In this document: positions 6,341 through 45,549 of the stretch, piece by piece
How the letters are laid out: each line of letters starts with the position of its first letter
Numbering within the stretch: the stretch's first letter is position 1
IMG/VR virus record: IMGVR_UViG_3300034374_009547
Strand: one strand, 5' to 3'
Origin: a virus
Lineage: Duplodnaviria; Caudoviricetes
Length of the DNA stretch: 64,000 bases
Notes under the pieces: generated by a model
Seen by the model: only the letters and a program-made list of their open reading frames with translations
The model's database searches: none
What the model was told of the DNA's origin: nothing
Translations under genes and position numbers: made by a program

Positions 6341-6999
6341 TTATGATATTTTATAAATTTTCCTACTTCCGGTCTAGGCTGATTTGAATGCACACCACGT
6401 TTGTATACAATACCATCAACCGGGCATCTCCAATATCCTTCGGCTTCAGGATTATGATCAAAATTTGGTTTTGTTCCAATACCCAAGCAAACCCATGTTT
6501 GATGATTGTCATAACCAATTTTTTTAGCAAAATAACTAGGGTCAGGAATACAACCACAAAATCCTGCTTGGTATCCTAAATCATATGCAGCATGTACTAG
6601 GTGCATTGCAGCCATTCCTACTTCCATATGTGATTGTGCAACATTGTCTATCATAACTCCAATAGGCCAATCTGTTTCAGGAACTGGTAAGTCTGTAATA
6701 GGTGTAGTAGGAACGGTAAAAGTTATAAGCAATGGTGCTGCCATTTGGGGTTGTTTGTTAAATGGTTTATGATTAGAACTATCTTGATCAATCCAAGTAC
6801 AATATTCATACATCCATAATCTTAAATCTTTATTGCTCCAATTGAAAACATCTATAAAGTATGGATATCTTCCTTGCTTACTAGGCAATGTTGCACATAA
6901 ATCATTCATTAGTTTTTCAACATGTTCTTCGGGTATAACTTCATTCATATTAAAATTGTTAAAGCTGTGCCGTGAATAAATTAATTCATTCCAGTCCAT
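6337..6999 (-). CDS. Nitroreductase-family (FMN-binding) protein
   Basis: N-terminal RHSF, PSKQ, and EVGMAAMHLVHAAYDLGYQAGFCGC, which matches the nitroreductase 'D/E.G.a...l.laA..lGl.t' block. Confidence 0.75.
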   Translation of the reverse strand: MDWNELIYSRHSFNNFNMNEVIPEEHVEKLMNDLCATLPSKQGRYPYFIDVFNWSNKDLRLWMYEYCTWIDQDSSNHKPFNKQPQMAAPLLITFTVPTTPITDLPVPETDWPIGVMIDNVAQSHMEVGMAAMHLVHAAYDLGYQAGFCGCIPDPSYFAKKIGYDNHQTWVCLGIGTKPNFDHNPEAEGYWRCPVDGIVYKRGVHSNQPRPEVGKFIKYHN

Positions 7000-8203
7000 T
7001 TAATACTTCTCCTAACCAAGGAAATTCAACAAAATAATCTTTTTGCTTCATTCCTCCTTGTAAAATATACCAATCTTTAGCTTTTTGTAATTGGTCTAAT
7101 TTCCTGTTTGTTCCTAGCATTGCTGCAACATTTTTACATAAATTTATATGATGTATGTTATGCTTTATGTTCAAACTTTCTAAGTAATCTATTGTCTTGT
7201 TGATTTCTGTTTTATATTTTAGCGGCAAAATACGAGGACTCATTGCAGCAGGTTCATTAACATAATTATGTCCTAGTTCCCATTTATCATTACCTCTATT
7301 TTTAATTGAAATATCTGTAATAGTTTTTATCATATTATAATGATAAGGCACACTTAATGCACTTATAGTAGGAAGCCAGCTAACACTTGTTACAGAACTA
7401 TCTTGCAAAATAGTTTCTGCATTTTTCCAAAATCTTTCCCATATCAATCCTTCACGTATTGTACTTCCTTCGTTACCCATGGCATCTATACTAGGACAAA
7501 TACGTAGATTTTTTAATCCACTATCTTTCCACATATCTAAAAAGTTTTCTAAAACCTTTGGTTTTACATTTAGGTTTGTTGTTAAACTTATTCCACCAAA
7601 TTTAGCATTTGAATTTTTATGTGCATCGATGATATTTTTAAAAACATCTGTAAACATAGGATCAAGTAAAGGTTCTCCACCAATAAAATTATAATCTAAC
7701 CATTGTTCAGATTTTCTAATATATTTGTACAAGTTGTCTAAGATTTTTGTTTTCCAAATATCTTCATCTGTATTATTGTTTTTTAATCCATCAATATCTG
7801 ACCACATACTACTTACATAACCATTACAATACATACATGTCATATTGCAAGTATTACTAAGCATTATTTCAATATGTCTTCCAGTATCATAATTAGGATT
7901 TTGCAGTTTTATTAAATCACTTTGTGTAAAATTATAATTTTTCCATGTATTCCAAACGCTCCACAAACTATCAGGATGATTTAAAGCACATTCTTTACAT
8001 CCATCAGGAAAATTATTTTGTTTTACAAAAAACTTTTTTTCTTTTTGTTCTTTTTTTCTATGTAAAAAAACTTGAGTGCCTTTTTCATCAATTTCATCTA
8101 TGGTTACTTTTTGATTAGTTTTTTTACAACAATTGACTATAGACTGCTGTGGCACACGAATGTTAATATCTGTCCACATTTTACTACAAACCATATGTTT
8201 CAT
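6986..8203 (-). CDS. Radical SAM protein with N-terminal Twitch-like Cys cluster
   Basis: VCSKMW..NCCK..GCKEC, then SNTCNMTCMYC and FIGGEPLL. Confidence 0.88.
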   Translation of the reverse strand: MKHMVCSKMWTDINIRVPQQSIVNCCKKTNQKVTIDEIDEKGTQVFLHRKKEQKEKKFFVKQNNFPDGCKECALNHPDSLWSVWNTWKNYNFTQSDLIKLQNPNYDTGRHIEIMLSNTCNMTCMYCNGYVSSMWSDIDGLKNNNTDEDIWKTKILDNLYKYIRKSEQWLDYNFIGGEPLLDPMFTDVFKNIIDAHKNSNAKFGGISLTTNLNVKPKVLENFLDMWKDSGLKNLRICPSIDAMGNEGSTIREGLIWERFWKNAETILQDSSVTSVSWLPTISALSVPYHYNMIKTITDISIKNRGNDKWELGHNYVNEPAAMSPRILPLKYKTEINKTIDYLESLNIKHNIHHINLCKNVAAMLGTNRKLDQLQKAKDWYILQGGMKQKDYFVEFPWLGEVLNGLE

Positions 8204-8910
8204 TTATAGGATCCTATAACGAGTTCATCTGCATCTGGCGGACCATACTCTTTTAAATTTATATCAAATTCACGTATATCATCAAAATGTTCTAAAATAC
8301 GTTTGGCAAATTGTATGTTATTTTTTTGATTCATATGACATGCTCTTAAATCAGCAAAATCGTCTTTCATAACATTTACCTTAAAAATTTCATGATCTAT
8401 ATCTGCTATCCGTGTCATAGAAGCTTTAATAGGTTCGTTTGCTGTTCTTGTCATAGCAGGAATACACAACTCAACATTTGGCATATTCCTAATTTCTTCA
8501 ACCAACAATTTCCAGTACAAGTTTTGTTCACGTTCGTCACAAATATATTGATAATAAAATTTCAATCCTGGTGCCATCTTTTTTGCTAGTATTGATTTTG
8601 GATCCCAATCTGATCTGTTTTCTCTGCGCATTATATAATGATATCCATAACAATGTTCAATATTGTAGTCAGTTAATTTTGGTAACCATAAACGATTAGG
8701 ATTAGTATAAATTACTATCAATTTATCGTACGCAGCTTCGTGTTGTCTAATTTGGTTGTATGTCCAATACAAACTGCTACCTGCAAATCCATGGTTGCCA
8801 ATATACCAATCTGGACGCATTTCTTGTAAATGCTCTGTCCAACGTTTTTGTTTCGCTTCCAAATCGCCAGTATGTCCTGCAAAGCTATCTCCAAAAACAC
8901 CGATCTTCAT
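8200..8910 (-). CDS. SGNH/GDSL-like hydrolase or acyltransferase
   Basis: KIGVFGDSF (block I), NHGFAGSS (block II), C-terminal RACH. ATG 8910 forms an ATGA overlap with the upstream stop. Confidence 0.65.
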   Translation of the reverse strand: MKIGVFGDSFAGHTGDLEAKQKRWTEHLQEMRPDWYIGNHGFAGSSLYWTYNQIRQHEAAYDKLIVIYTNPNRLWLPKLTDYNIEHCYGYHYIMRRENRSDWDPKSILAKKMAPGLKFYYQYICDEREQNLYWKLLVEEIRNMPNVELCIPAMTRTANEPIKASMTRIADIDHEIFKVNVMKDDFADLRACHMNQKNNIQFAKRILEHFDDIREFDINLKEYGPPDADELVIGSYK

Positions 8911-9626
8911 GTAATCAACTCTCCTGGTATAAACCAATAATCTACAGGACCGTGTGTCCTAGTAATAGCACTTTTAAATTGTACACTATAGTAATTATTC
9001 TCACGGAGCAAAGGAACCACTATATTCTGAGGACATTCAATTTGTATTATAGGTTTATATTTACTTACCGTCCATTCTGCTCCTAAAATAATCTTAGCAT
9101 CTGCACCTTCTGCATCAACTTTTATAAAGTCTATGTTTTTTATATTTTTTATTCTAACAAATTTGTCTATTGTGTTGGTTTGTACATTTAAGACTTTTGG
9201 TTCAAAATCTTCTTTCCATCTAAATCTGTCTAGGGTGTTACCTCCCATTTTTTCTGGATTTTTAGCTCTATATTCTTCAGGAACAACATAAAATTCTGTA
9301 AGTTTTCTGTGAGAGTATAAGGGTTGTTGTACTAAGGTAAAATTTTCGTATCCTTGTTGTACACACCATTTTTTAATTTCATTAATTGTGAAATCAGGTT
9401 CAAAACCATAAACATAATCATGCCACGAACATACACCCATAGACGTCGGATAATGTAAACCAACATTTATATATGTTCCTAGTTTTTTATAATGTTTTGC
9501 AATTGCATAACCTATATGATAGTTATCGTATTGCTTTTTTCCTAGTATAAATTCATCTCTTGTAATATTTCTAACTAGTTCTATATGGTTAAGGTGAATA
9601 ACTGGCAAACTCGGGAATAATTTCAA
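8907..9626 (-). CDS. FkbM-like SAM-dependent methyltransferase
   Basis: YINVGL, YGFEPD, IDFIKVDAEGAD and PIIQIE are FkbM-type motifs. Start codon uncertain. Confidence 0.7.
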   Translation of the reverse strand: MKLFPSLPVIHLNHIELVRNITRDEFILGKKQYDNYHIGYAIAKHYKKLGTYINVGLHYPTSMGVCSWHDYVYGFEPDFTINEIKKWCVQQGYENFTLVQQPLYSHRKLTEFYVVPEEYRAKNPEKMGGNTLDRFRWKEDFEPKVLNVQTNTIDKFVRIKNIKNIDFIKVDAEGADAKIILGAEWTVSKYKPIIQIECPQNIVVPLLRENNYYSVQFKSAITRTHGPVDYWFIPGELIT

Positions 9627-10752
9627 TTAAATTTTCTTTCCTACTAATATCTAAATTTTTTGTATAATCAACAAACTTATTATATTTATTTGACCAATCT
9701 TCTGCATACATATAATCAATTATACCTTGCACTTTAGGTAACCAAGTATATGGTTCTAAACGTTTTGCTGCAAGATCTTTTAATTCTTTTGGTAGAACTC
9801 TAATGTTAAGTTCTTCAGGATGATTAAGAATATTAAAGTAAATCTTGTAGTCATAAGGCAATGCCCATTCTATAAAGTCATTTAGTTTTAATATATTGTA
9901 CATTTGTACCGTACAATGAATTTCTACAAATGCATTTTCAAGTTTAGTTATTGCCTCAAAGTTTTCTACAATTTTATCCCAGTTGCTTGGATATCTAATA
10001 TATCTATCTAACTCACCTGTAGCATCAATACTGCAATTTAGCTGTACACGTTTGAAATGACTCCATTTTTGCATCAATTCTGCAGGCACATTTGTAAGAT
10101 TAGTATTGTATTTTAATTTAATTTTTTTTGCTTTACCGCTATCAATATAATAATCTAATAATCTATGTTGTTCTTTGATAATAGTTGGCTCGCCACCAGT
10201 TAAATATATTTCCTCTACCGTATCTGCAATTTTAAAAAGATTATCCCATACCGTTTCGTGTTCTGGCCAATCCATATTTTTTAATCTATTGTATTCACTT
10301 TCTTCTAGTGCATCACTTACTAAATGCCATTCTTTTACCCATTGATTACTTGCATACGGATTGCACATACGGCATTTTAAGTTACATAGATTACCTAAAC
10401 GTATATCAACATAACGTATTGTAAAAGGTGCTTCAACTGGATAATCTCTATCTTGAGCCCATTTTTCATTCCAGTTTTGTCTAGTACTTGTTATACCAGC
10501 ATCTTCTTCTCTAAAGCAACGTGTACACATTTCAGGACGTTCGCCGTTGAGCATTTCTTGTCTAATTTTTTTGTAGGTTTCGCTATTCCATGCTTCTTCT
10601 ATATTGTCTTTGTTGACACGGTAAGCATTGCCATCATCTTTCATAATAAAATTCTTACCCGGTGTACTATTACAGCATACTCTCATAATGCCACTTGCAC
10701 TTGTAGCTAAACTCATCCATGGTAATACGCAAAATGTTTTAGATTGAGTCAT
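9589..10752 (-). CDS. N-terminal Twitch radical SAM protein
   Basis: FCVLPW..RVCC..CTRC; LGNLCNLKCRMC; LTGGEPT; YNTN; C-terminal LDISRKENLIEIIP. Confidence 0.92.
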   Translation of the reverse strand: MTQSKTFCVLPWMSLATSASGIMRVCCNSTPGKNFIMKDDGNAYRVNKDNIEEAWNSETYKKIRQEMLNGERPEMCTRCFREEDAGITSTRQNWNEKWAQDRDYPVEAPFTIRYVDIRLGNLCNLKCRMCNPYASNQWVKEWHLVSDALEESEYNRLKNMDWPEHETVWDNLFKIADTVEEIYLTGGEPTIIKEQHRLLDYYIDSGKAKKIKLKYNTNLTNVPAELMQKWSHFKRVQLNCSIDATGELDRYIRYPSNWDKIVENFEAITKLENAFVEIHCTVQMYNILKLNDFIEWALPYDYKIYFNILNHPEELNIRVLPKELKDLAAKRLEPYTWLPKVQGIIDYMYAEDWSNKYNKFVDYTKNLDISRKENLIEIIPEFASYSP

Positions 10753-11836
10753 AAATTTCTATTCCCTTTTCATCTAATAAATGAGGCAAAACTTGTTTTA
10801 AAGATTGATTTCTTATTTTATCTAATCTAGCAGTACTAACTATAAAGTTATTATACATTTTGAGATCAGTAGGTTGCTGCAACAAAGTTTTTATACCGTG
10901 TAATTTTGTAGGATCATTGTTGTATATATCTTCAATTTTTTCAATATCTGATATAATCGACTTTTTACTTTTTTCTGGCATCAAATTACATACCAAATAT
11001 TTTGGATTATCTAATATTATCCAATTAATTCTATGGTTAACAATTTTAGTAAATTCGTACATATTGTGTATGGTTAAATTTTGAACAACATAGTTATAAC
11101 TAAAACTTGTAAAGTTTAATTCTTCAATTTGTTTGATTCTTTCCAAACATTGTTTCCAACTAAATGTATTATCACCTCTCACATATTCGTATGTATTGCC
11201 TACTCCGTCTATACTTAGCTGGTAATCAATTTCAATATGCGAGGATAAATCAATAAACCATTGAGGAAGTTTGGTACCATTAGAAATAACTACAAGTTTC
11301 ACAGGAATGTTTAACTTGCTTATTTTTTCTAAAAAGTATTGTGCATTGGGATTAATTAAGGGCTCGCCGCCTTTGAGTTCAACTACAATACGTTTTTGAT
11401 TTTTTATATAATTTAAAATTTTATCAATTTCTTCTTTGGTAATTTGCCATTGAACCTGTTTCTTTCTTCCTAACTTTATTGCGTCTGCAAACCAGCTAGT
11501 GCTTAAATGTTCATTACACATCCTGCATTTTAAATTACAAAAATTACCTAAACTTATGTCTAATAAAAAATCACCATACTCAAATCTATAGTCATAACTT
11601 TGTCTACGACTTAGCAAATTATTTTCTTCAGCAAATTTACAACTACTGCATCCGTCAGGCCAATATCCGTTTTGTAATAATTTTTTTGTTTTTTTCCATT
11701 GTTTGCTAGAAAAAATATTGTCCACACTTTTATAATCCATAAGCATATCAAAAGTGTCTCTAAACTTACAACAAGGTCTTACATAACCATTAGGATCAAT
11801 AGAAATACTATGATGTAAACTATAACAATCATTCAT
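10739..11836 (-). CDS. N-terminal Twitch radical SAM protein
   Basis: DCYSLHH..RPCC..CSSC; LGNFCNLKCRMC; LKGGEPL; LDKIRNQSL. Confidence 0.9.
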   Translation of the reverse strand: MNDCYSLHHSISIDPNGYVRPCCKFRDTFDMLMDYKSVDNIFSSKQWKKTKKLLQNGYWPDGCSSCKFAEENNLLSRRQSYDYRFEYGDFLLDISLGNFCNLKCRMCNEHLSTSWFADAIKLGRKKQVQWQITKEEIDKILNYIKNQKRIVVELKGGEPLINPNAQYFLEKISKLNIPVKLVVISNGTKLPQWFIDLSSHIEIDYQLSIDGVGNTYEYVRGDNTFSWKQCLERIKQIEELNFTSFSYNYVVQNLTIHNMYEFTKIVNHRINWIILDNPKYLVCNLMPEKSKKSIISDIEKIEDIYNNDPTKLHGIKTLLQQPTDLKMYNNFIVSTARLDKIRNQSLKQVLPHLLDEKGIEIYDSI

Positions 11837-13013
11837 AGTACTTGTATACCTTTTGCTTTGTAAAATCTTGGTCTCTATAAGGATCTCTTATTTTTGTGTA
11901 AAGTAAAAATTTGTTTTTTTGTTGTAACTCGTCTTCAGGTTTTTGTTTAATTTTATTTTTTATATCGTTTATGAATGTTTTTTCGTTATTATTTAAAACT
12001 TTAATTTTTTGTATTTCATTTAATGCATCATTTTTTAAACTTATTGGCGCATTTTTCACATCTAAGTATAACGGATTATCCAAAGGTATACAATTAATTT
12101 TACTTTTTAAATTACGTGTTAAATGTAACATATTTTTTATTTCTAACATGTTGTAAATTTGTAAAGTAAAAGTTAAATTACATACTATGTTTTGATAACC
12201 TGAATTATGAGAAATTTTCAATCTATTATAAGTATCTTTCCAATCTGTAGGATATCTAATGTACTCATAAGTTTCTTTTGTACCATCAATACTAAAACTT
12301 AAAATACATAATTTAAACTTGCTTAATAAATCAATCCATTCTTGTGTAATCAAAGTACCATTTGTTATCAATTGTATTGTAATTTCTTTTGCTCTATCTG
12401 TTTTAATACAATAATCTATAACTTCCTTCACTCCTGGAACCATCATAGGTTCGCCGCCAGTAAACTTTAATTCTAATAATCCTTTGTCTATGTAATGTTT
12501 TACTCTTGCAACAAAAACAGGATCTAAATACCATTTATCTTGTTTATAATTAAGTTCATTATCTTGCTTACTTGCTAAATTAATACCTGTTTCGTTATAT
12601 ATTTTAACATTTTCTGCATGTACTTTGCTGCTGCTGTAACTATTACACATCCTACAACTTAAATTGCAGTAATTACCTAGTTTTAAATCTAATTCTAAAG
12701 GTGTTTCAACGGTAGTATGCAAATTATCAATATAATCTTGCCAACGTCCACTTTTTTTGTATTTGTGTATTAACCCTTGCCGTAAACTTTGTATACCTAA
12801 ATCTTCTTTATTCCAACAAGATTGACATATTTCTGGTCTTTCATCGTTGAGCATTTGCTGCTTGACTTCTGATCGCAAGCCATGCCAGTGATTTTTAAAA
12901 TTAGTTAGATACCAATCCTCATTCTGAGTTACTGCATTACAACATAATCTATTTGATCCTCGTGTGTTAATACACAAATGATGCCATACAGCAGGACAAA
13001 TAGTTTTAGACAT
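11829..13013 (-). CDS. N-terminal Twitch radical SAM protein
   Basis: ICPAVW..RLCC..CQSCW; LGNYCNLSCRMC; FTGGEPM; ITNGT. Confidence 0.92.
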   Translation of the reverse strand: MSKTICPAVWHHLCINTRGSNRLCCNAVTQNEDWYLTNFKNHWHGLRSEVKQQMLNDERPEICQSCWNKEDLGIQSLRQGLIHKYKKSGRWQDYIDNLHTTVETPLELDLKLGNYCNLSCRMCNSYSSSKVHAENVKIYNETGINLASKQDNELNYKQDKWYLDPVFVARVKHYIDKGLLELKFTGGEPMMVPGVKEVIDYCIKTDRAKEITIQLITNGTLITQEWIDLLSKFKLCILSFSIDGTKETYEYIRYPTDWKDTYNRLKISHNSGYQNIVCNLTFTLQIYNMLEIKNMLHLTRNLKSKINCIPLDNPLYLDVKNAPISLKNDALNEIQKIKVLNNNEKTFINDIKNKIKQKPEDELQQKNKFLLYTKIRDPYRDQDFTKQKVYKYYE

Positions 13014-13887: not shown

Positions 13888-14645
13888 AGTGTCTCCTTTA
13901 AATATTCTGCAAATGCATCGTGAGCATATTCTTTAAAATGATATTGCGGATATAGATCGTAATATTTTGTTTCTTTTATTATACTATACTTTGCAAAATC
14001 TTGCAATCTTTTTTTGTTAGAAGCAATTTTTGTTAGCTCTTGCCCTGTTACTTTACTATTCATTTTATCTGCAATATTAATTAAATGTACTTTAGGAAAT
14101 ACACTTTTTATATAAAAATATATTCCTGCATTAAAAGCACACCAACTAAAGTCTGTTGGGCCATGCATGTGTGCAAGTTTTATAAATTGCTTTACATCTG
14201 CACTTTTTCCTGCAACATAGTTGAGATTTCTATTACCATCAAATCGTGTTTCATCAAACATAAATCTATGTGCAAATGTATACGATACTAATACAATGTC
14301 AGTATCCCAATTTATTTTATCTGCATATTGATATAACATGTAAAGTGTTCTATCAGCACCGCTTCCTCTAATGCCATGATTTTCTAAATCAAAGTCTAAT
14401 TTATTTGCCAACCTACCCACAAAACTTAATTCACGTTCCTTTTGGGCAATGTCAGTATTTGCTCTTAAGTTTTCTAATATATTATGCCATTCGTCTTGTA
14501 ATTTTTCTCTTGAATTAGTATCCAAATGCATGATATCTGTATGCCCAACACGTTCCTTCATCCATGCATCTGTATCCATATGCTCACTTACACCTAATTC
14601 GGCTCCTTGAACATGACTACATCCAAATCCCCATACCTTAGGCAT
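13881..14645 (-). CDS. SGNH-like protein (block I G-C-S variant)
   Basis: KVWGFGCSHVQG, NHGIRGSG, C-terminal PQYH. Start placed at ATG 14645 rather than 14741. Confidence 0.6.
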   Translation of the reverse strand: MPKVWGFGCSHVQGAELGVSEHMDTDAWMKERVGHTDIMHLDTNSREKLQDEWHNILENLRANTDIAQKERELSFVGRLANKLDFDLENHGIRGSGADRTLYMLYQYADKINWDTDIVLVSYTFAHRFMFDETRFDGNRNLNYVAGKSADVKQFIKLAHMHGPTDFSWCAFNAGIYFYIKSVFPKVHLINIADKMNSKVTGQELTKIASNKKRLQDFAKYSIIKETKYYDLYPQYHFKEYAHDAFAEYLKETLC

Positions 14646-15261
14646 AATGCTTCTCCCAAATTTTTTTTGGTACAAAGTAAAATTTAAAAAAATTAGATGG
14701 TGTTTCAACTTTTTGATATTCAAGTTCTGTAAATACTTCATCCATTGCTGTTTCGTAATGATGAACTTGAATTATAGGAGTATGTTTTTTAATAATTTCT
14801 TTAGCACCTTGTAATACAAAAATATCATTCCATTCTGTATCTATTTTTATATAATCAATTTTAAAATCATATTCAACAAATTCGTTGTCTAACGTGTTGC
14901 ATTCAACTTCATATGTCGTAAAACTATGATTGTCTGGAATGTTATCTAATAAACTTGAACAACCTGCATTTTCCAAGTCCTCATTAAATTTTGCAGTACC
15001 TACAAAATTGCTAATTGCTTTGTTTTCTAAGAAAATATTATTTAAATAATACGTCTGTGTTTCAGTTTGTTTTTGTTTTTCTAAAATTTTATTGAATAGC
15101 GTTTTATTGGGCTCATATGCATACACCATTTCGCACACATCGTTATAACGTTGAGCATAACTATAATCATATAACCCTACATCAATAATAGTATGAGGAT
15201 CTATACCAAATTTATAAAATAAGTAAGTTGAATAATGGTGATGCATCCAATGTCTACGCAT
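14638..15261 (-). CDS. FkbM-like SAM-dependent methyltransferase
   Basis: IIDVGL, VYAYEPN, NKAIS, IDYIKIDTE, PIIQV. Confidence 0.8.
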   Translation of the reverse strand: MRRHWMHHHYSTYLFYKFGIDPHTIIDVGLYDYSYAQRYNDVCEMVYAYEPNKTLFNKILEKQKQTETQTYYLNNIFLENKAISNFVGTAKFNEDLENAGCSSLLDNIPDNHSFTTYEVECNTLDNEFVEYDFKIDYIKIDTEWNDIFVLQGAKEIIKKHTPIIQVHHYETAMDEVFTELEYQKVETPSNFFKFYFVPKKIWEKHYA

Positions 15262-16463: not shown

Positions 16464-16482
16464 ATATGCGTAGTTTATTGTT

Positions 16483-30021: not shown

Positions 30022-30032
30022 ATTGTACTTAC

Positions 30033-35330: not shown

Positions 35331-35336
35331 TGTTTT

Positions 35337-35364
35337 ATTATAACACCTTTTTAGTTTTTGTCAA
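35337..35364 (-). promoter_or_regulatory. sigma70 promoter TTGACA-N16-TATAAT, -10 box 6 nt before ATG 35330 (leaderless)
   Basis: Forward TGTCAA at 35359-35364 (inside the last codons of the upstream gene) and ATTATA at 35337-35342. Confidence 0.8.
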
Positions 35365-36734: not shown

Positions 36735-37794
36735 TCCAGAAATTTTGTTTTCTTAATTTATCTCTTATTTTTGTTTGCTCAACAAACATATCATACAAAT
36801 GTTGGTCAAACGGTTTTTTTGTAGCAATAACACTAGGCATATCTTTGTGCTTATTTGGATCTAAGTTGTAATTTTTACCTTGCACAAAAGGATACATGTA
36901 ATTAGGTGTAATTAAAGGTGTCATATGAAACTCTGTATCGGCAAAATAATCAATTATGTTATTTAACTTAAAAATATTATATGCACTAACAACACAAACA
37001 ACATTCATGTTACTATTATCTTTTATAGTATTATATGCTTTTTCAAAGTTTTTCCATTTACCTGGCCATCTGATATAATCGTAAACATCTTCAATTCCGT
37101 CGCAACTTATACTAATGTGTAAATCTTTAAACTTGTTTAACAACTTAAAATGCTTTTGTTTTAATAACAAGCCGTTGGTAATAAATTTTAAACTTATTTC
37201 TTTTTTATTTTTTAATGATTCTAAAAATTCAAAAATTTTAGGATTTGCAAAAGGTTCGCCGCCTGTAAATTTTAATTCTTTTACATTTTGCTTTTGAATT
37301 TGATCAAAAGCATTTTGTTCCCATGTGCCAACATTTGCAGGAAATCTATATTCTTCTCTAAGCCAATTTTCATTAGGATTATTTTTAACTTCTGCTTCTA
37401 AAACACTGCTTATTCCAGGTGCACACATACGGCAGCCTAAATTACACAAACTACTCATTTTCATATCAAAGTAAAATGGAGTAATTTTTGTTGAACCAGT
37501 TTTTGTAGTATTAGTTTTTATTTCTTCAATGTAATCTTGAAATTTGTAATTGACACTTTGACGTCTGCTAAATTTTCCTAAATCTTCATGGTTCCAGCAT
37601 GTAGTGCATTCTTTTCTACGAACTCCATTTAACAAATCTTTTCGTAAATCATCAAATTTACTATTGTTGTTTTCTATTGTATCAGACCAGTGAGCATCGT
37701 TACTAGGATTGTATACGCAACAAGGTCGATAAGCGCCAGTACCTGTAATACTACTGGCACCTATCCAAGGTAAGACACAGAATGTGTCAGACAT
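36721..37794 (-). CDS. N-terminal Twitch radical SAM protein
   Basis: FCVLPW..RPCC..CTTCW; MSSLCNLGCRMC; FTGGEPF; ITNG. Confidence 0.92.
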   Translation of the reverse strand: MSDTFCVLPWIGASSITGTGAYRPCCVYNPSNDAHWSDTIENNNSKFDDLRKDLLNGVRRKECTTCWNHEDLGKFSRRQSVNYKFQDYIEEIKTNTTKTGSTKITPFYFDMKMSSLCNLGCRMCAPGISSVLEAEVKNNPNENWLREEYRFPANVGTWEQNAFDQIQKQNVKELKFTGGEPFANPKIFEFLESLKNKKEISLKFITNGLLLKQKHFKLLNKFKDLHISISCDGIEDVYDYIRWPGKWKNFEKAYNTIKDNSNMNVVCVVSAYNIFKLNNIIDYFADTEFHMTPLITPNYMYPFVQGKNYNLDPNKHKDMPSVIATKKPFDQHLYDMFVEQTKIRDKLRKQNFWNVQN

Positions 37795-38725
37795 AACTTA
37801 CATATGCATCCAAATCTGGTTTTGTGTCGTGATCACTTCTTGGAATTGGAACCATTTTTTGATAATACGGACAGAAATATTCTTCTGCTGGATCTTTGTA
37901 ACCTATACCGATTGTCATTTCTGGAAAAAAGCCAATTGCTTCCTTTATTAGATCAGGATAATTTACACACCGACATAATCCAGTATATAAACCTTTATCT
38001 GCTGCACTATAAATTATAGTAGCAGTTGCAATTCCTACATCCATATAAAAATCCGTCATGCTATAATCATCACTAATTACTCTAGGTTTAAAGAATAATA
38101 AGTATGGAGCAAGCATTTGAGGGTTGTGTCTAGCCGTTTCACTTTTACTTGCAGCGCCGGCTCTATAAATTTTGTTACGTTTTTCTTCATTGTCGTTTCT
38201 GTATATCTCAATACTATAACGTGTGACACGCTGCTTGCTAGGTGAAAAATTATGCACATCACTAATAATATCTTTTATCATATCAATTGGCGGAACTGCG
38301 TCTGTCCAATTATAAGTGTTAACTCTTTGTTGTGCTGCACGATGCCATGTATTAGGCTGTTCAATCGGTCCTCTTTCAATAATAGTTTTTAAAGTATTTT
38401 TCAAATCACTAATTTGATTAGAAAAATCTTCTGAGCACATTAGTTGATTTTGTATAAAATCTACTATCCAATCGTATACTGCAAATTCAACTTCGGTACT
38501 AACAATTTGTCTTTTGCCTCTTACCCAAAATTTGTTACCAATGTATATTGTATTAGTATTAGTGTTGTTTTCAACATCATGAATAAATGCATCAATAATG
38601 TATCCTAAATCTCTAAAACATTTTTCTGGTTCTTGCGTTCGCTCAGGATGATGTTGTTTCATATAAGATACAGCATTGTTTAATAAACGCTTTTTATTTT
38701 CTATTAGGATACTTAGATCACTCAT
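37787..38725 (-). CDS. Nitroreductase-family protein with an N-terminal phycobiliprotein-like helical module
   Basis: C-terminal half has PSKQ and DVGIATATIIYSAADKGLYTGLC. N-terminal ~120 aa contain KCFRDLGYII. Confidence 0.65.
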   Translation of the reverse strand: MSDLSILIENKKRLLNNAVSYMKQHHPERTQEPEKCFRDLGYIIDAFIHDVENNTNTNTIYIGNKFWVRGKRQIVSTEVEFAVYDWIVDFIQNQLMCSEDFSNQISDLKNTLKTIIERGPIEQPNTWHRAAQQRVNTYNWTDAVPPIDMIKDIISDVHNFSPSKQRVTRYSIEIYRNDNEEKRNKIYRAGAASKSETARHNPQMLAPYLLFFKPRVISDDYSMTDFYMDVGIATATIIYSAADKGLYTGLCRCVNYPDLIKEAIGFFPEMTIGIGYKDPAEEYFCPYYQKMVPIPRSDHDTKPDLDAYVSYV

Positions 38726-38726
38726 T

Positions 38727-38951
38727 TTAATTCTCCATTACCAATTTAACATCTTTACCAGGGCCTACTTTGCTTGGCAAATCTCCGTATTGTTCTACAT
38801 ACCATTCAATAACAGCTTTATACCAATTTTGACTATTATGGTGAGCTTTTTTATTAAACTGCCATATGTTATTGTTTGTTGCTTGCATTGTACTCAATGC
38901 TCTTGCACTTTCCGTTTGTAATTGTCTTACACTTAGATCATCTAATTCCAA
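38727..38951 (-). CDS. Small hypothetical protein (74 aa)
   Basis: Fills the gap between 38938 and 38725 exactly, overlapping the upstream stop; ATG start. Confidence 0.75.
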   Translation of the reverse strand: MELDDLSVRQLQTESARALSTMQATNNNIWQFNKKAHHNSQNWYKAVIEWYVEQYGDLPSKVGPGKDVKLVMEN

Positions 38952-39984
38952 TTTTCATAAACCTTGTATATTTTCCTAAATTTAATTCGCCTTCATATAA
39001 AGTTTGTGCCATAGGCGAATACTTGCTAAACTCTTCTAGTGTGTTGCAGCAATTAACATGCTCTGGTATTTCAAAATAATTATTACCTTGCAAAATACAA
39101 ATTGTTCCTTCTGGAATTTTATGATACCATACATGATAATTTTCAATGTGCTCGGTGCTTGTGTTTATAACGGTGTTAGGTGTTTCCCAGATTGTTTCTT
39201 GGGTTCCGTCAAATTTATTTACATCGTAAATATGTCCATCAAATCTAATATCATGTATATCTTGTATGCAATGTTTATATGTCCAATTGTTTAAAATATA
39301 AGGCTTGTTAATAATGTTTGCAATTTTTTCGCAAGACTCATCTACATCAAATGTTGTAATTTTATCAATTTTTAATTTTGCATCTAACATCATAGTTGCT
39401 AAAATACCATACCAGCCTGCACATAAAAAAACTATTCCTAAATCTAAATTTAATTTTTTAAGTTCATCTATAAGCCAGAGTTTACTTTGTAATTGACCTC
39501 TACTTAAACAATCTTTATCAAACTCTATATCGTTTGTAATTAAATTTTTTAGTGCATTTACAAGAGTTGAATCTGAATATTCTGCAAGTAATCTAAACAA
39601 ACTAAAAAGATTATCGTCTAAAACAAGTTTACGTATATCATCATTACCAGCACATTTAAAAATTGAATTTTCATCTTTTTCTATAATAGCAAGTTTTAAA
39701 CTATCGTTTCCTGCTAGTAATCTAAACAAACTATGAATATTTTGCTCAAGAATTGCTTTCCTTAAATCTTCAATATCGCCAATAATTCTTTTGTTAGTTA
39801 CAAGCCTAAATATACTATGCCAATTTTCTTCTAAAATAGCACGCCGTAACTCATCCTTTTCAACTAACTCAAATAAACTAGTGTAATCTTTATCTATGTA
39901 TAATCTACGTAATTTACTAAAGCGAGAATCGTCAGCATGAATTAATTCAAATCTATCTAATATTTCAAAAATTTCCAGCATCAA
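38938..39984 (-). CDS. Methyltransferase-like protein with N-terminal helical repeats
   Basis: FLCAGWYG (Gly-rich motif I-like), TFDVD, INTSTEH; five ~21-aa repeats at the N-terminus. Confidence 0.6.
   Translation of the reverse strand: MMLEIFEILDRFELIHADDSRFSKLRRLYIDKDYTSLFELVEKDELRRAILEENWHSIFRLVTNKRIIGDIEDLRKAILEQNIHSLFRLLAGNDSLKLAIIEKDENSIFKCAGNDDIRKLVLDDNLFSLFRLLAEYSDSTLVNALKNLITNDIEFDKDCLSRGQLQSKLWLIDELKKLNLDLGIVFLCAGWYGILATMMLDAKLKIDKITTFDVDESCEKIANIINKPYILNNWTYKHCIQDIHDIRFDGHIYDVNKFDGTQETIWETPNTVINTSTEHIENYHVWYHKIPEGTICILQGNNYFEIPEHVNCCNTLEEFSKYSPMAQTLYEGELNLGKYTRFMKIGIR
39586..39918 (-). repeat. Five degenerate ~21-aa helical repeats, roughly (D/E)-L-R-x-A-I-L-E-x-N-x-x-S-(L/I)-F-R-L
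   Basis: KLRRLYIDKDYTSLFEL / ELRRAILEENWHSIFRL / DLRKAILEQNIHSLFRL / SLKLAIIEKDENSIFKC / DIRKLVLDDNLFSLFRL. Confidence 0.85.
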
Positions 39985-41023
39985 ATTTTTCTTTCAACCA
40001 ATCAAAATCATTTATCTTTTTAAGCTCGTCTGGTTTACCTTGATTTCTAGCACCATATGCTGCACCTGCTTTAGCACCAATAATTGCATACTCTGCAAAT
40101 TCTGCATCATCTTCTGTGTATGTGCACCAAGTTCTTAATCTACGATTTGTTTCTTGATCCTTTTGCCTATCAATTACTTTACTACTTAATTTAGCACATT
40201 CTCTAAATGCACCTTTCCATGTTTCAAATGGACTAGTGTTAAATGCAGTAATGTTTGAAATTTTTTGCACAGCAACAAATTTATTACTAATGCTTGTTGT
40301 CATATCAGGCTTGTTTACATCCATATCAAGCGTTTGTTGCCTTGGCAACAACTTAACACCGCCGTAACCATAAACTAATCCATTTACTGGATTTTGTGAT
40401 CTCCATACGTGAACTGCATCTTTATTATGTGTTTCAGGAACAAAGGTGTCAAATTTAAAATAGTCTGTAAGTTGGGCATCGCCGTCGACAACAAAAAACA
40501 TCTTAGATTGACACAATTTTGCTGCTTCAATATGCGCTTGGTGAATACCTTTTACTCCATGTACACGTTTTGCATGAGGTGCTTTTTCGAGAAGTTTTTC
40601 AAAATTTTCATCTGCATTAGGTTCTTTATAGCTAATAAACACAACATCATACTGATCAATTTTTGGCCTGCTTGCAACAACAGGAACAAACTTTTTATTA
40701 ATGTAATATCTTGCTTGTAATTCGCCTGGCCCGTGATGACTATCTTTCGGCATTAAACACACGCCATCATAATATTCTTCTTTATAATATAATCTTTCAT
40801 TCAAAAATACATGTGTGTATTCTTTACTATACTCATCTACTTTGTAATCAAATTTCCAATCATCAACCAAATCAACGTCATTATACACAATCCATAAATG
40901 TTTTGTAAGTGCTTTTTGTTTTGCTTCTGGCACCGTTTCTACACAGCGAGCCATAGGAAATCTTTCTTTTAAGGCTTTGTAGCCACTCCAATGTTTTTGA
41001 CCTATAAAAAATATATCATACAT
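39965..41023 (-). CDS. GT-A-fold glycosyltransferase-like protein with a degenerate N-terminal duplicate domain
   Basis: YDVVFISY.EPN, RVHGVKG, FFVVDGD (DxD), YGYGGVKL, WKGAFRE. The N-terminal part repeats YDIFF..LWIVYND. True start is ATG 41023, not 41179. Confidence 0.65.
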   Translation of the reverse strand: MYDIFFIGQKHWSGYKALKERFPMARCVETVPEAKQKALTKHLWIVYNDVDLVDDWKFDYKVDEYSKEYTHVFLNERLYYKEEYYDGVCLMPKDSHHGPGELQARYYINKKFVPVVASRPKIDQYDVVFISYKEPNADENFEKLLEKAPHAKRVHGVKGIHQAHIEAAKLCQSKMFFVVDGDAQLTDYFKFDTFVPETHNKDAVHVWRSQNPVNGLVYGYGGVKLLPRQQTLDMDVNKPDMTTSISNKFVAVQKISNITAFNTSPFETWKGAFRECAKLSSKVIDRQKDQETNRRLRTWCTYTEDDAEFAEYAIIGAKAGAAYGARNQGKPDELKKINDFDWLKEKFDAGNF

Positions 41024-41029
41024 ACTATA

Positions 41030-41058
41030 ATTATATGATAATATAACTAGCTTGTCAA
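41030..41058 (-). promoter_or_regulatory. Consensus sigma70 promoter TTGACA-N17-TATAAT, -10 box 6 nt before ATG 41023 (leaderless)
   Basis: Forward TGTCAA at 41053-41058 and ATTATA at 41030-41035. Heads the ~22.7-kb minus-strand run ending at 18302. Confidence 0.9.
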
Positions 41059-41068
41059 GTTTAGAATT

Positions 41069-41090
41069 GATAAATAGTTTGTACGGAGGA
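41069..41090 (+). promoter_or_regulatory. T4-late-like GATAAATA box plus GGAGG Shine-Dalgarno for the fibre gene
   Basis: GATAAATA at 41069-41076; GGAGG at 41085-41089; ATG at 41096. Confidence 0.65.
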
Positions 41091-41095
41091 TTACC

Positions 41096-42523
41096 ATGAC
41101 AATTATACCAGGTGACGCATATAGAATTGATGTTGTAGGCGCTGATGAACAAGTTATCGTTGACAGCTGGACAAGCCAAGTTAAAGGCAATGTTGTAACA
41201 CGTGACGGTGTTTTACAAGTTGACACAACAAACGGAAAAATATATGGTCCATTAGTAGGAGATATTGAAGATATTTCCGGTAACACTATCTTTAATAACG
41301 ATCTACGTTTATTTACTACTGATATTAAAGGTGATGTACGTAACACAAATGGTAATATTGTTTTAAACAGCGAACAAGCACTACTGGTAGGCAACATGCA
41401 AGGTAATATGTATGACAGCGAAGGTGTTGTCATGATTAACCATACTACAAAATCAATAGATGCAACAACAATTGTAGCTGATAGTATTACTGGTACGTTT
41501 TACGGAACTCTTAACACAACAGGTACAATTAGAGGTAACTTAATTGGTAATGTTGTTGGCGATGTTACTGGAGAAGTTACTGGAAATACAACCGGACATC
41601 ACTTTGGTAATGTAGACGGTAATGTTACGGGTGATGTTACTGGTAACGTTACCGGAGATTTGTACGGACAAATTATGGCTGTACAAAGAGATGAAACAGA
41701 TCCAACCGTACTGATTGCTTACAACGAACATGCAGCTCATAGACAATGGGAAATGAGAGGCGGTATTTCTCATATTGATAATGCTGGAAAGGGACCTATT
41801 TTAGGAATTGGTGCTACACGCACAGATGCATATTTAAAAGCCGATATAGTTGCATATGATGGCACTCCACAGCTAACTTTAACACCAACAGAAGACTACG
41901 GTCTAGAAGCAGACATTGTAAAAAGTAATTACTTTGGTGCTGTACAAGGCAGGCTAATGGATGGAACAACTGACATTATGACATGGGTTGGTAGCACAAC
42001 TTCGATATATGCTAATAACGGTGTACTACAACTTGGTATGGATTACACAAGTGATATTGAGTTTAATGCAGAAAGTATTGTTAAAAACTTCAATATATCT
42101 GACGGAGATGCAACTGAATTAGTCAACGCTTTTAGAGGAACACCAGAAGCAAAAACAGCATTACAAACATCAGATCCAATGCTTATGGTTGCAGCTCTTG
42201 GTTATAATGGTGCAGGATTTGTTGATGCAGGACATTTTGGATTCTTTGTTGACAGAAACACTGCTCCTACTTCAACTGATAGTAGTGTAAAAACAGGGTT
42301 TAGTGTTGCACTAGGAACAGGATCTGCAACTCCTATAGCAAATCAAAGCATGAATTTAGAATTTAATAGTGCAGGTGTTTTAGAAGTTCCTGTTTTTAAA
42401 GCCCGTGGTACAAATTTTGCAGCAAGAGATAGTATGACTGCTGAAGCAGGAATGATTATTTTCAATACAAGTAATAATAAATTCCAAGGATACACAGGTT
42501 CTGCGTGGGTTGACTTACACTAA
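41096..42523 (+). CDS. Tail-fibre-like virion protein with G-x-V-T repeats
   Basis: Tetrapeptide-periodic Gly segment; C-terminus AGMIIFNTSNNKFQGYTGSAWVDLH, homologous to the 2..1348 product. Confidence 0.75.
   Translation: MTIIPGDAYRIDVVGADEQVIVDSWTSQVKGNVVTRDGVLQVDTTNGKIYGPLVGDIEDISGNTIFNNDLRLFTTDIKGDVRNTNGNIVLNSEQALLVGNMQGNMYDSEGVVMINHTTKSIDATTIVADSITGTFYGTLNTTGTIRGNLIGNVVGDVTGEVTGNTTGHHFGNVDGNVTGDVTGNVTGDLYGQIMAVQRDETDPTVLIAYNEHAAHRQWEMRGGISHIDNAGKGPILGIGATRTDAYLKADIVAYDGTPQLTLTPTEDYGLEADIVKSNYFGAVQGRLMDGTTDIMTWVGSTTSIYANNGVLQLGMDYTSDIEFNAESIVKNFNISDGDATELVNAFRGTPEAKTALQTSDPMLMVAALGYNGAGFVDAGHFGFFVDRNTAPTSTDSSVKTGFSVALGTGSATPIANQSMNLEFNSAGVLEVPVFKARGTNFAARDSMTAEAGMIIFNTSNNKFQGYTGSAWVDLH
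41492..41673 (+). repeat. ~15 tandem G-x-(V/L/I/T)-x tetrapeptide units (12-nt period)
   Basis: GTFYGTLNTTGTIRGNLIGNVVGDVTGEVTGNTTGHHFGNVDGNVTGDVTGNVTGDLYGQI. A shorter copy (GNLTGDVTGNVSG) lies near 55470-55510 on the minus strand. Confidence 0.9.
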
Positions 42524-42537: not shown

Positions 42538-42542
42538 AAAGC

Positions 42543-43604: not shown

Positions 43605-44211
43605 ACTAGAAATATACAACGGCACACAGGATTTGACAGAGTTTTATGCTGGCGCAGAAGCAAAAGGTTTTTACAATAATCATAATAAAACGGTACTTAT
43701 TGACTACATTGACAAACACGAAGATGCTACACTATTTTTAATGTATTACAAAGATAAAGTAGTTGGAACAAGTATAAGTCATAGTCTACGACAATTGGGT
43801 ATATTAGGAAAAAACGCACATCGTATTAGTGCAAGGACCTGCGTATTAAATGATTTAATCGATGGCAATCGTGCTCATGCTGTGCATAACTATCGACACT
43901 CGCCAATGAATCATTGGACTAGTCAAATGCTGACTCCAGTTTGTATGCATTACGTAGGATTAGAAAAACCTATGTATATTAGCACAAACACAAACGAAGT
44001 TGGAAGCCAAAACAAAGTACATCGCATTTGGGCTAAAATAATGCACAATCAAGGATATTTAAAAGACCCTATTGAACTAGAATACAAAGGCACTTTCCAA
44101 ACATTTTGGCGTGTAGATGTAGATTTTTATATTAAAAAACTAAAAGAAAATATGTGGCCTGAAACAGAACTTGCACTAAACGTATTTCTTGCAGAGTTCA
44201 AAAAAGTCTGA
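43597..44211 (+). CDS. Hypothetical protein, possibly GNAT-like acyltransferase
   Basis: Coupled to the adenylating enzyme; FLMYYKDKVVG..RISARTC beta-strand pattern. Fold call is weak. Confidence 0.4.
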   Translation: MYRLEIYNGTQDLTEFYAGAEAKGFYNNHNKTVLIDYIDKHEDATLFLMYYKDKVVGTSISHSLRQLGILGKNAHRISARTCVLNDLIDGNRAHAVHNYRHSPMNHWTSQMLTPVCMHYVGLEKPMYISTNTNEVGSQNKVHRIWAKIMHNQGYLKDPIELEYKGTFQTFWRVDVDFYIKKLKENMWPETELALNVFLAEFKKV

Positions 44212-45549
44212 CATTTCTGGAAACACTTCTTCGTGATTGACTCCACGTCTACGACCTTGTTCTGCAAAAAAGTTGTGAAAGTCTTTACGTCCTTGAATAA
44301 TTTTATCTAATGGATATTCAGTTGTTTCCATATAGTCAACAACACGTCTAAACTTTTCATACTCAATTGTACTAAATGCATCTTTACGATTATCATCTAC
44401 ATTTTCTTTTATAAATTGCAAATGATCACGCATATAACTCATGTAGTTATTAGGCAAAATGTTAATATCATATTGTAACGGCTCTTTAAGATGTGGTGTA
44501 TCAAAACCTAACCGCTGCCATCTGTGTGTTTCTACATCATTATATTTTTTACGCCATTCTAATATTTTTTCTAGTAGTGTGCGAAATGTTGTTACACTGA
44601 AAATGTTGAACGTAATCATTAGTACCATTGGTGCTTGACAATTACGCATAAAATAATCCAAGTTACGTTCAAACACTTCAATGTCTAATCCGTCTCGTAT
44701 GTATTCTGCACGTTTGCCCCAAGTGTCAATACTAGTAAACATTTTAAAGCGTCTAATCTTGTTGTTTGTTAACAAATCATTTACACGGTTTGTAAACTTT
44801 TCTAACTGCTTTGGTTTTCCACCTAAATTGCTGTTGCAATTAAGCTCTAAGTCAGGCTTAGGATCAGCATCAAGCATATCAAACAACCGGTATGTGCTTT
44901 GTTGTATAGTAGGTTCTCCACCAGTAATACGCAGTATGTGCAGTTCTTTACTAAGCTCGGGCCACCATCGCCAAAATGCATCTAAATAAGGATTGTTTTC
45001 TTCTTCAAATATTTGAAACCAATCAATATCACATCTGTGATTTTTTACATTTGTGTACGGGCCATGTTGTTTAATTTCTTGATAGTATCTGCTGCTGGCT
45101 TTAGGATGACAATAACCGCAACGGAAGTTACACTCGTTGCCAAATGATACTTCTAAGTATTCTGGATTTACGTCAAACTCTGCACCGCCTTCTTTTACTG
45201 CTGCTAATCTATGTTTGAAGAAAATAGTTTGGTTACGCTGTTTCCTATCACTAACATAATCTTTGCCAAGTGCTTCAATTTTCCAGCAATAGTTGCAACC
45301 ACTAGGCTGTTCGCCACGCATCATAGCAGCACGTTCTTGTTTCTTTTGTGCTGTGTTGTGTATTGCACTTGGATTTTCTAATAATGGTGCTGTGTCAATT
45401 TTATGGGGAGCAGGATGATAACAACTATGTGTTTCACCTGTTTGAAAATATATGTTGGCATGATACCATTTTGCAAAACAAAACGTTGGTGATATTTCTT
45501 GTGTTATACCATCGATGCGTTTAATTTCTTCGCTTTCGCTACGCTCCAT
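44176..45549 (-). CDS. N-terminal Twitch radical SAM protein
   Basis: FCFAKW..HSCYH..GCNYCW; FGNECNFRCGYC; ITGGEPT; NSN; RRGVNHEEVFPE. Confidence 0.92.
   Translation of the reverse strand: MERSESEEIKRIDGITQEISPTFCFAKWYHANIYFQTGETHSCYHPAPHKIDTAPLLENPSAIHNTAQKKQERAAMMRGEQPSGCNYCWKIEALGKDYVSDRKQRNQTIFFKHRLAAVKEGGAEFDVNPEYLEVSFGNECNFRCGYCHPKASSRYYQEIKQHGPYTNVKNHRCDIDWFQIFEEENNPYLDAFWRWWPELSKELHILRITGGEPTIQQSTYRLFDMLDADPKPDLELNCNSNLGGKPKQLEKFTNRVNDLLTNNKIRRFKMFTSIDTWGKRAEYIRDGLDIEVFERNLDYFMRNCQAPMVLMITFNIFSVTTFRTLLEKILEWRKKYNDVETHRWQRLGFDTPHLKEPLQYDINILPNNYMSYMRDHLQFIKENVDDNRKDAFSTIEYEKFRRVVDYMETTEYPLDKIIQGRKDFHNFFAEQGRRRGVNHEEVFPEMSDFFELCKKYV

Follow-up and report, generated by a model that had tools for sequence, protein, structure and literature searches.

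Introduction

Radical S-adenosylmethionine (SAM) enzymes perform some of biology's hardest reactions. The subject of this report is an island of such enzymes in a stretch of 64,000 nucleotides from a virus of the class Caudoviricetes (IMG/VR record IMGVR_UViG_3300034374_009547; the whole of this stretch is called the window below), in which 14 paralogous proteins of the radical SAM family named N_Twi are encoded between positions 6986 and 45549. We predict, at roughly even odds (a probability of about 0.5), that these 14 proteins are radical tailoring enzymes for a phage-made glycan and that their chemistry, by analogy with the enzyme BtrN, is probably oxidative.

In the literature, the SPASM and twitch domains of radical SAM enzymes are described as C-terminal extensions (PMC9012708, PMC10337720). 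BtrN, the 2-deoxy-scyllo-inosamine dehydrogenase of butirosin biosynthesis (PDB 4M7S/4M7T), has a sugar-like small-molecule substrate in which an alcohol is oxidized to a ketone, and the auxiliary cluster of the enzyme is ligated by four cysteines; the reactions of BtrN, PqqE and SuiB are alike in being two-electron oxidations (PMC9012708, PMC10337720). The SPASM-type maturases, namely anSME, SkfB, CteB, SuiB, PqqE and TigE, act on peptides, usually possess a leader-binding domain, and have a C-terminal extension that in most of them holds two auxiliary clusters (SkfB has one, located in a twitch domain).

The second type of described system is virus-encoded glycosylation of the virion, of which protein A64R of PBCV-1, which glycosylates the capsid, and the mycobacteriophage capsid and tail systems are examples. 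Glycosylation of phage virions is documented (Freeman et al. 2023, as cited in PMC12619734). These systems resemble the window in that viral genes for GT-A glycosyltransferases lie beside structural genes, and they differ in that a virion glycan is a prediction for the window phage and for the cultured Ralstonia phage RsoM2USA. To our knowledge, no radical SAM enzymes occur in the known virus-encoded virion glycosylation systems.

A phage island of 20 radical SAM genes that has grown from a glycosyltransferase cassette behind the tail fibres appears to be undescribed in the literature that was searched, and a search on radical SAM enzymes together with jumbo marine phages returned nothing relevant. 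What is new here is the residue-level match to BtrN, the array of a conserved core plus hypervariable members, the partnership with SGNH genes in bacteria and the syntenic cassette in a cultured phage.

Fourteen Proteins of One Family

A preliminary description of the window had listed 14 paralogous radical SAM genes and had referred to an "N-terminal twitch" family with an inverted domain layout. The 14 coordinates are the low ends of intact open reading frames (ORFs) of 357-466 amino acids, all on the minus strand, and each gene is called here by this low coordinate. The family in question is represented by the NCBIfam model NF033640 (N_Twi_rSAM, "twitch domain-containing radical SAM protein"), which has 398 positions and a curated cut-off of 170 bits. 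All 14 proteins match this model over nearly its whole length, with E values from 3e-49 to 8e-127, and 13 of them score above the cut-off (194.8-423.6 bits). The remaining protein (6986) is the most divergent copy; it reaches 168.2 bits over model positions 4-397 of 398 and has all seven conserved cysteines. We consider it practically certain that the 14 copies belong to the N_Twi_rSAM family, and the proposed phylogeny likewise shows a single family and not unrelated origins.

In order along the window, the 14 genes are located at 6986-8203 (405 amino acids), 9589-10752 (387 amino acids, 404.8 bits; the copy that was modelled), 10739-11836 (365 amino acids, 204.2 bits), 11829-13013 (394 amino acids, 282.4 bits), 15254-16450 (398 amino acids, 278.3 bits), 18302-19375 (357 amino acids, 230.7 bits), 19372-20517 (381 amino acids, 228.6 bits; tandem sister of the preceding gene), 21499-22815 (438 amino acids, 387.2 bits), 22815-24002 (395 amino acids, 232.1 bits), 26455-27783 (442 amino acids, 194.8 bits; situated between two PP-loop genes), 28621-30021 (466 amino acids, 423.6 bits; conserved throughout the clade), 33151-34251 (366 amino acids, 204.2 bits), 36721-37794 (357 amino acids, 254.2 bits) and 44176-45549 (457 amino acids, 298.6 bits; located in the glycosyltransferase cassette). 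Pairwise identity among the copies is about 18-41%.

The Radical_SAM domain (PF04055) is matched in the middle of all 14 proteins, 12 of them above the gathering score. The proposed search with PF13186 (SPASM) found the module at residues ~4-90 in eight of the 14, seven of which exceed the gathering score, with the Radical_SAM domain behind it. The residues that are invariant in the alignment of the 14 copies are, in the numbering of the 9589 protein, C8, C26, C76 and C79, the CxxxCxxC motif of C123, C127 and C130, and also GGE, N218, S241, D243 and R253. In every copy the four N-terminal cysteines precede the CxxxCxxC motif within one ORF, and together with the NF033640 matches this bears out the inverted layout. 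Both CxxxCxxC and GGE are invariant in 122 relatives as well. Agreement of this kind among the 14 copies greatly exceeds what chance would give. A shared C-terminal LD-x2-R-x6-(V/I)-x-P motif, which had been ascribed to most copies, is present in its strict form in five and in a relaxed form in two more; most of the others have a weaker D-x2-(R/K/Q), and so "most" is only loosely true.

NF033640 is a catalogue entry for which no experimentally characterized member was found; the literature that was searched yielded no paper naming the family and no assayed member. The family is large, with 8,655 clusters at 50% identity (E <= 1e-30), and the 14 deeply diverged copies in one phage island are at the high end for it.

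The N-terminal Module and BtrN

As judged from sequence and from a structural model, the N-terminal module is a permuted twitch domain that lies ahead of the radical SAM barrel. A profile built from the N-terminal ~100 residues of the 14 paralogs and compared with the sequences in the PDB had one significant match, residues 166-237 of BtrN (4M7S; E 3.9e-6). In this alignment C8, C26, C76 and C79 correspond one-to-one to the four cysteine ligands of the BtrN auxiliary cluster. The twitch domains of the two are thus homologous, with the four cysteines in register; they differ in position, the BtrN domain lying behind its barrel and the N_Twi domain ahead of it. Between the cores the relationship is distant, and the top matches of the N_Twi core do not include BtrN.

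The AlphaFold2 model of the 9589 protein, which was made from an alignment of 122 sequences, has a mean predicted local distance difference test score (pLDDT) of 95.2 and a predicted template modelling score (pTM) of 0.92. It places a beta-hairpin (strands 14-17 and 22-24) between C8 and C26, helices within residues 51-68, and C76 and C79 at the start of a helix that comprises residues 74-84. A partial TIM barrel begins at about residue 112 and is followed by a helical C-terminal cap. The hairpin-helix arrangement and the profile match to BtrN support the earlier suggestion that the N-terminal cysteines form a twitch-like site.

These four are the only cysteines outside the SAM motif that are conserved in the 14 copies and the 122 relatives. 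Among the relatives, C8 is retained in 121, C26 in 120 and C76 and C79 in all 122. The seven or eight conserved cysteines with which SPASM-type enzymes hold two auxiliary clusters are not present in the 14 copies or the 122 relatives. The alignment implies a full four-cysteine ligation of the auxiliary cluster in the N_Twi enzymes.

Most copies have a CC pair in this module, and the preliminary description was right that its second cysteine is absent in exactly four of them: 15254 (SCW), 18302 (PCT), 26455 (SCP) and 44176 (SCY). It was mistaken in taking this loss as a hint of a different cluster ligation. The residue aligned with the BtrN ligand is the invariant first cysteine of the pair, BtrN itself does not have the second one, and among the relatives it is retained in 94 of 122 and absent in 28. 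The BtrN alignment and these counts give no support to an altered ligation by way of the missing cysteine.

The Catalytic Core

The catalytic cores of solved structure that are closest by sequence profile are those of the peptide maturases TigE (E 5.6e-18), SkfB and CteB. By structure, anSME (Z 13.8), BlsE, SkfB (Z 13.2) and viperin are tied at Z 13.1-13.8. Foldseek and VIA-align matched only the barrel of the N_Twi model, and the absence of BtrN among the listed structural matches is uninformative with regard to the twitch domain because the domain order is permuted. Since peptide maturases, anSME, BlsE, SkfB and viperin are all near, the core cannot name the substrate, and a sugar is not indicated by it.

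These matches bear on a second explanation, which we consider unlikely, that the N_Twi enzymes modify proteins or peptides of the virion directly, introducing cross-links, epimerizations or formylglycine-like oxidations into tail-fibre or other structural proteins in the manner of anSME or of the enzymes for peptides that are made on the ribosome and modified after translation (RiPPs). TigE, SkfB and CteB being the closest relatives by profile and anSME the top structural match both agree with it. The N_Twi copies resemble the SPASM-type maturases in that PF13186 recognizes their N-terminal module, and they differ in having a single four-cysteine site that is N-terminal and in showing neither a RiPP recognition element (RRE) nor an adjacent precursor gene: no RRE or other leader-binding domain was matched in the 14 copies with the Pfam and NCBIfam families, and the two gaps in the operon hold no repetitive or cysteine-rich small ORF, the tight packing elsewhere leaving no space for a precursor; a protein substrate could be encoded elsewhere. 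The surroundings point both ways. The island lies amid fibre-like genes, one of which (41096-42523) is inside it, and in the bacterial locus G085 a fibre-like S74-chaperone/type IX secretion system (T9SS) protein adjoins the N_Twi genes; against this, an N_Twi gene is interleaved with three or four glycosyltransferases in a conserved cassette, and in bacteria the family is recurrently accompanied by SGNH proteins, glycosyltransferases and sulfotransferases.

The Glycosyltransferase Cassette

The evidence for a link to glycans begins with the 44176 gene. It is part of a cassette, located directly behind tail-fibre genes, with the order glycosyltransferase, glycosyltransferase, unknown, GT2-like, N_Twi, GT2-like, unknown. 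The same order is found in phage RsoM2USA, a cultured phage with a genome of 343.8 kb (MG752970), so that 47853, 47021, 46465, 45549, 44176, 39965 and 38938 correspond in order to ORF353, ORF352, ORF351, ORF350, ORF349, ORF348 and ORF347. The identities in the same order are 38%, 35%, no detectable match, 48%, 35%, 47% and 29%; 46465 and ORF351 agree in size and position only. The syntenic N_Twi proteins 44176 and ORF349 are 35% identical over 461 amino acids (E 2e-98). In RsoM2USA the cassette is directly behind the fibre-like ORF355 and the ORFs 356 and 359, both of which are virion proteins by mass spectrometry (PMC8504454). All the cassette ORFs bear the annotation hypothetical and receive no discussion in the genome paper (PMC8504454).

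Four cassette genes, all on the minus strand, encode predicted glycosyltransferases. The first, 47853-48692, is a GT-A-like nucleotide-sugar transferase with a DxD motif recognized by eye and is a paralog of the second, 47021-47866, whose Atlas clusters bear the name nucleotide-diphospho-sugar transferase, one of them with PF03407 or GT8. The 45549-46475 gene encodes a GT2-like protein with a predicted GT-A fold; its AlphaFold2 model (pLDDT 79.5) has significant PDB matches (E 2e-4 to 1e-3) that are almost all GT-A proteins, namely SunS, PBCV-1 A64R, WrtF, RmlT and TarP, with A64R among the top ones. Its paralog at 39965-41179 is 31-34% identical to it. DxD motifs are present in four ORFs, and the Atlas neighbours are named GT2-like or nucleotide-diphospho-sugar transferase. 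The last gene, 38938-39984 (minus strand), encodes a conserved partner protein with helical repeats and a C-terminal domain, the latter being the part with 29% identity to ORF347; a homolog is present in 75 of 80 related loci. Sequence searches of the PDB with the proteins 27780, 47021, 45549, 38938 and 13006 gave nothing usable.

Two sites in this region match the sigma-70 promoter consensus perfectly (12/12), although the region as a whole has no more promoter-like sites than expected by chance. One is in the gap ahead of the cassette (49059-49087, minus strand). The other (41030-41058, minus strand) is just upstream of a methionine codon at ~41023, and because the homologs of the 39965 protein begin at that methionine, the true start of the gene is probably near 41023 and the called TTG start at 41179 probably too early.

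A GT2-like homolog is located within 10 kb of the core N_Twi gene (28621) in 72-73 of the 80 loci. Among 50,697 phage records RsoM2USA is the sole carrier of the GT2-like family. In the window lineage three plus-strand genes have been inserted after the N_Twi gene of the cassette, and a radical SAM array of ~34 kb has been appended downstream. This expansion is absent in RsoM2USA, which has two N_Twi genes in total, ORF349 and, outside the cassette, ORF202 (126846-128228). Three genes downstream of ORF202 is ORF199 (523 amino acids), the N-terminus of which resembles, by eye, carbamoyltransferases of the NodU/CmcH type, another type of sugar-tailoring enzyme.

The position of the cassette also bears on a third explanation, that the enzymes work on nucleotides or DNA and make a hypermodified base or a small molecule derived from nucleotides, with host defence as one conceivable target. 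Viperin, MoaA and BlsE, to which the core is similar, have nucleotide or nucleoside substrates, one paralog is flanked by two QueC-like PP-loop genes, and DNA glycosylation by phage glycosyltransferases is possible (work cited in PMC12619734). We nevertheless rate this explanation as quite improbable. No DpdA/TGT-like or base-hydroxymethylase gene was recognized in the island, in two distant phages the cassette belongs to the virion module and follows the fibre genes directly, and the bacterial neighbours of the family (membrane GT-C, GT9, sulfotransferase and T9SS-cargo proteins) point to the cell envelope. In addition, the four auxiliary ligands are all cysteines, unlike those of MoaA, which has an open iron site that binds GTP (PMC9012708).

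Cellular Members of the Family

NF033640 is matched above its cut-off in two of 300 other sampled Bacteroidota genomes and in the metagenome-assembled genome (MAG) that seeded the sample, and Chitinophagales and Flavobacteriales carry cellular N_Twi genes on chromosomal contigs. Five chromosomal loci were examined, and GDSL/SGNH genes adjoin the N_Twi genes in four of them. Other genes near the bacterial N_Twi genes encode a methyltransferase-GT2 fusion protein, a GT-C, a GT2 and a GT9 protein, sulfotransferases, B12-binding radical SAM proteins and PhyH dioxygenases. The fifth locus (G085) has five PhyH genes, a WelO5-like halogenase, a methyltransferase and the fibre-like S74/T9SS protein noted above, and it has no glycosyltransferase.

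The PhyH, halogenase and methyltransferase genes of G085 look like natural-product tailoring, and so they bring in a fourth explanation, that the product is a small molecule or lipid other than a glycan (a secondary metabolite or a modified lipid), with the glycosyltransferases merely decorating it. An AMP-binding ligase gene and a FeeM/GNAT-like gene in the island agree with such a product, and GDGT-MAS and Tes are distant matches of the N_Twi proteins. The ligase and GNAT genes, however, are present in only 19-27 of the 80 related loci, the position in the virion module is conserved, and no core gene for a polyketide synthase, a nonribosomal peptide synthetase, terpene synthesis or lipid synthesis was found in the window. 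We regard this as the least probable of the explanations considered.

One Crocinitomicaceae MAG (L081/G006) carries N_Twi genes with up to 70% identity to those of the window on its contigs C480, C457, C59, C187 and C30. A scan of genome contigs with a single protein gave one MAG contig only. Wrongly binned phage DNA is the probable explanation of these contigs, but they could be a hint of a host among the Bacteroidota.

Evolution of the Array

The locus was compared with 80 related loci, and homologs were counted within 10 kb of the 28621 ortholog in 81 loci. The 28621 ortholog is present at 60% identity or more in all 80, and 34248, a radical SAM gene of another family, is present at the same level in 75. 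Close counterparts of most other N_Twi copies are missing from these loci. The 348 N_Twi homologs counted near the core gene form 113 clusters at 65% identity, and five large related contigs have 6-11 NF033640 genes above the cut-off.

A tree was built from 128 members of the family. For 12 of the 14 window paralogs the nearest relative is in another phage contig, and the only sister pair is 18302 and 19372, with 41% identity. This distribution implies that most of the copies are old lineages and not the result of a recent amplification, and the tree excludes a recent tandem amplification of the array. The sequences thus describe the array as old lineages assembled around a conserved core, with a hypervariable content. 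Near relatives differ strongly in what the array contains, which suggests that a surface structure is under diversifying selection.

Fusions of two complete N_Twi units, 750-1400 amino acids in length, are frequent, accounting for ~30 of the best 150 library matches (L005, L057, L071 and P0243-P0273). Such fusions would be a hint that neighbouring paralogs cooperate.

Other Genes of the Island

The island contains 20 radical SAM genes in all, each with CxxxCxxC. Six of them, from two other families, had been overlooked in the preliminary description. Family 2 has the conventional C-terminal twitch pattern, C-x18-CC-x54-CxxC, so both domain orders are side by side in the island. Its four members, all on the minus strand, are 20510-21502 (PF04055, with PF13186 at residues 245-323), 32118-33176 (a radical SAM-like paralog with CxxxCxxC that is homologous to the other three), the clade-conserved 34248-35330 (PF04055) and 35907-36734 (PF04055; 40% identity to 34248). 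Family 3 consists of two minus-strand paralogs with PF04055 that have no twitch domain, 5184-6305 (58.9 bits) and 24494-25648.

Two minus-strand genes encode methyltransferases of the FkbM family (PF05050), 8907-9626 (57.3 bits) and 14638-15261 (49.6 bits). An SGNH/GDSL-like protein is weakly assigned to 8200-8937 (minus strand), for which a hidden Markov model (HMM) of the bacterial GDSL neighbours gave E 2.8e-4 and hhalign gave 88% over blocks I-II; a homolog search with this protein returned two proteins only, too few for a fold. Three further SGNH-like genes, at 16483-17181, 17169-17843 and 17818-18372 on the plus strand, are weakly assigned from HMM and hhalign comparison. The two PP-loop genes that flank 26455 are paralogs on the minus strand (25638-26462 and 27780-28634), both predicted to encode QueC/NAD synthase-like ATP pyrophosphatases with weak matches to PF01171; for 27780, Atlas features and structure lead to QueC, NAD_synthase and Asn_synthase clusters.

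The minus-strand gene at 30033-31307 encodes an asparagine-synthase-like (AsnB-like) amidotransferase (PF13537 and PF00733). It is lineage-specific, with no homolog in the 80 related loci. Most of the array is bracketed by two nitroreductase-like minus-strand genes, 6337-6999 and 37787-38725, with a mutual identity of 25%. The second assignment is weak, and this protein has an extra N-terminal domain of ~120-190 amino acids with no family match. Pfam searches at E <= 1 of about 20 accessory ORFs gave weak hints only.

The Phage and Its Fibre-like Genes

The window has a G+C content of ~30-33%, is coding nearly throughout and contains no tRNA genes; the minus strand carries most of its genes as a tightly overlapping operon. 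Orthologs of 28621 with 82-96% identity were found on 201 IMG/VR viral contigs, the longest of which is 256 kb with a CheckV completeness of 72%, which implies a genome of ~350 kb; metagenome contigs of 343-347 kb carry homologs as well. Tail-collar and fibre-like paralogs are encoded in the right flank of the window, and their N-termini are similar to those of proteins from the jumbo phages Atu_ph07, Phosso, XacN1 and RsoM2USA. Public runs that contain window DNA are labelled freshwater or aquatic metagenomes, which does not agree with the earlier description of a family found mostly in marine sequences. On account of the contig completeness, the likeness of the fibre N-termini and the run labels, the window represents part of the genome, ~350 kb in size, of an uncultured aquatic jumbo phage.

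Three tail-fibre-like paralogs with 30-44% identity, one of them with a phage tail-collar domain, are at 51124-56684 (minus strand); the N-terminal ~130 amino acids of 54657-56684 are 35-42% identical to proteins of Phosso, Atu_ph07, XacN1, RsoM2USA and others. The minus-strand protein at 57319-63864 has at least 2181 amino acids and runs past the end of the window, and its sole recognized feature is an FG-GAP repeat. At the other end of the window, on the plus strand, a fibre-like gene (2-1348) is next to a gene for a 999-amino acid protein (1359-4358), in which a subtilase (S8) domain is present only C-terminally, at residues 785-919; this protein may be a fibre that ends in a self-cleaving or enzymatic part. 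The fibre-like, glycine-rich and repetitive proteins of 2-1348 and 41096-42523 (both plus strand) have a near-identical C-terminal end (53% identity over 32 amino acids), which may be a trimerization or attachment module. The second of these genes is within the island on the strand opposite to the radical SAM genes.

Short contigs in four metatranscriptome libraries from different studies are identical to scattered parts of 20510-38725. They are compatible with expression of the island, but a contig in an RNA library is no proof of transcription; parts of the island without such contigs carry no meaning.

Proposed Function

The synteny of the cassette, the predicted GT-A fold of 45549, the GT2-like homolog in 72-73 of the 80 loci and the SGNH and glycosyltransferase neighbours in bacteria make a glycan link of the array somewhat probable. 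BtrN-like oxidative chemistry is a more tentative proposal by analogy, since the reaction is inferred solely from the BtrN-type ligation of the auxiliary cluster. This weighs against the glycan-tailoring proposal, as do several other observations. As noted above, the nearest catalytic cores, by profile and by structure, do not indicate a sugar, the four SGNH and two PP-loop assignments are weak, and locus G085 has no glycosyltransferase. Finally, no gene for nucleotide-sugar synthesis, such as a nucleotidyltransferase or a dehydratase, was recognized in the window.

In the proposed mechanism, each enzyme would bind two [4Fe-4S] clusters; in BtrN the two cluster sites are roughly 16 Å apart. 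The cluster at CxxxCxxC would cleave SAM, and the resulting 5'-deoxyadenosyl radical would abstract a hydrogen from the substrate. The auxiliary cluster, fully ligated by cysteines, would then take an electron, and the net reaction would be a two-electron oxidation or a cross-link, as has been proposed for BtrN, PqqE and SuiB (PMC9012708). The substrate would be a sugar structure built by the co-encoded GT-A glycosyltransferases, and the likeliest surface structures would be a glycan on the virion fibres or on the envelope of the infected cell.

An ancestral cassette, common with RsoM2USA, has been extended by ~34 kb in the aquatic lineage. The extension contains old, shuffled N_Twi lineages together with other radical SAM, FkbM, SGNH-like, PP-loop, AsnB-like and nitroreductase-like genes. 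Every paralog would act on a position or sugar of its own; the position-specific catalysts on a shared scaffold that the preliminary description had suggested would fit the genomic context. A bolder version, which we offer as speculation and consider doubtful, is that the N_Twi arrays carry out a combinatorial radical editing of a tail-fibre glycan, each paralog performing a different C-H functionalization (oxidation, epimerization, deoxygenation or cross-linking). If this were true, closely related phages would display different surface chemistries, a viral counterpart of O-antigen diversity that would be based on a radical carbohydrate chemistry so far undescribed.

In conclusion, about 44 kb spent on 20 radical SAM enzymes beside host-recognition genes points to a large unexplored chemistry at the phage-host interface, which may yield new biocatalysts for modifying carbohydrates. 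With a syntenic cassette present in RsoM2USA, a cultured phage, its function is accessible to laboratory test.

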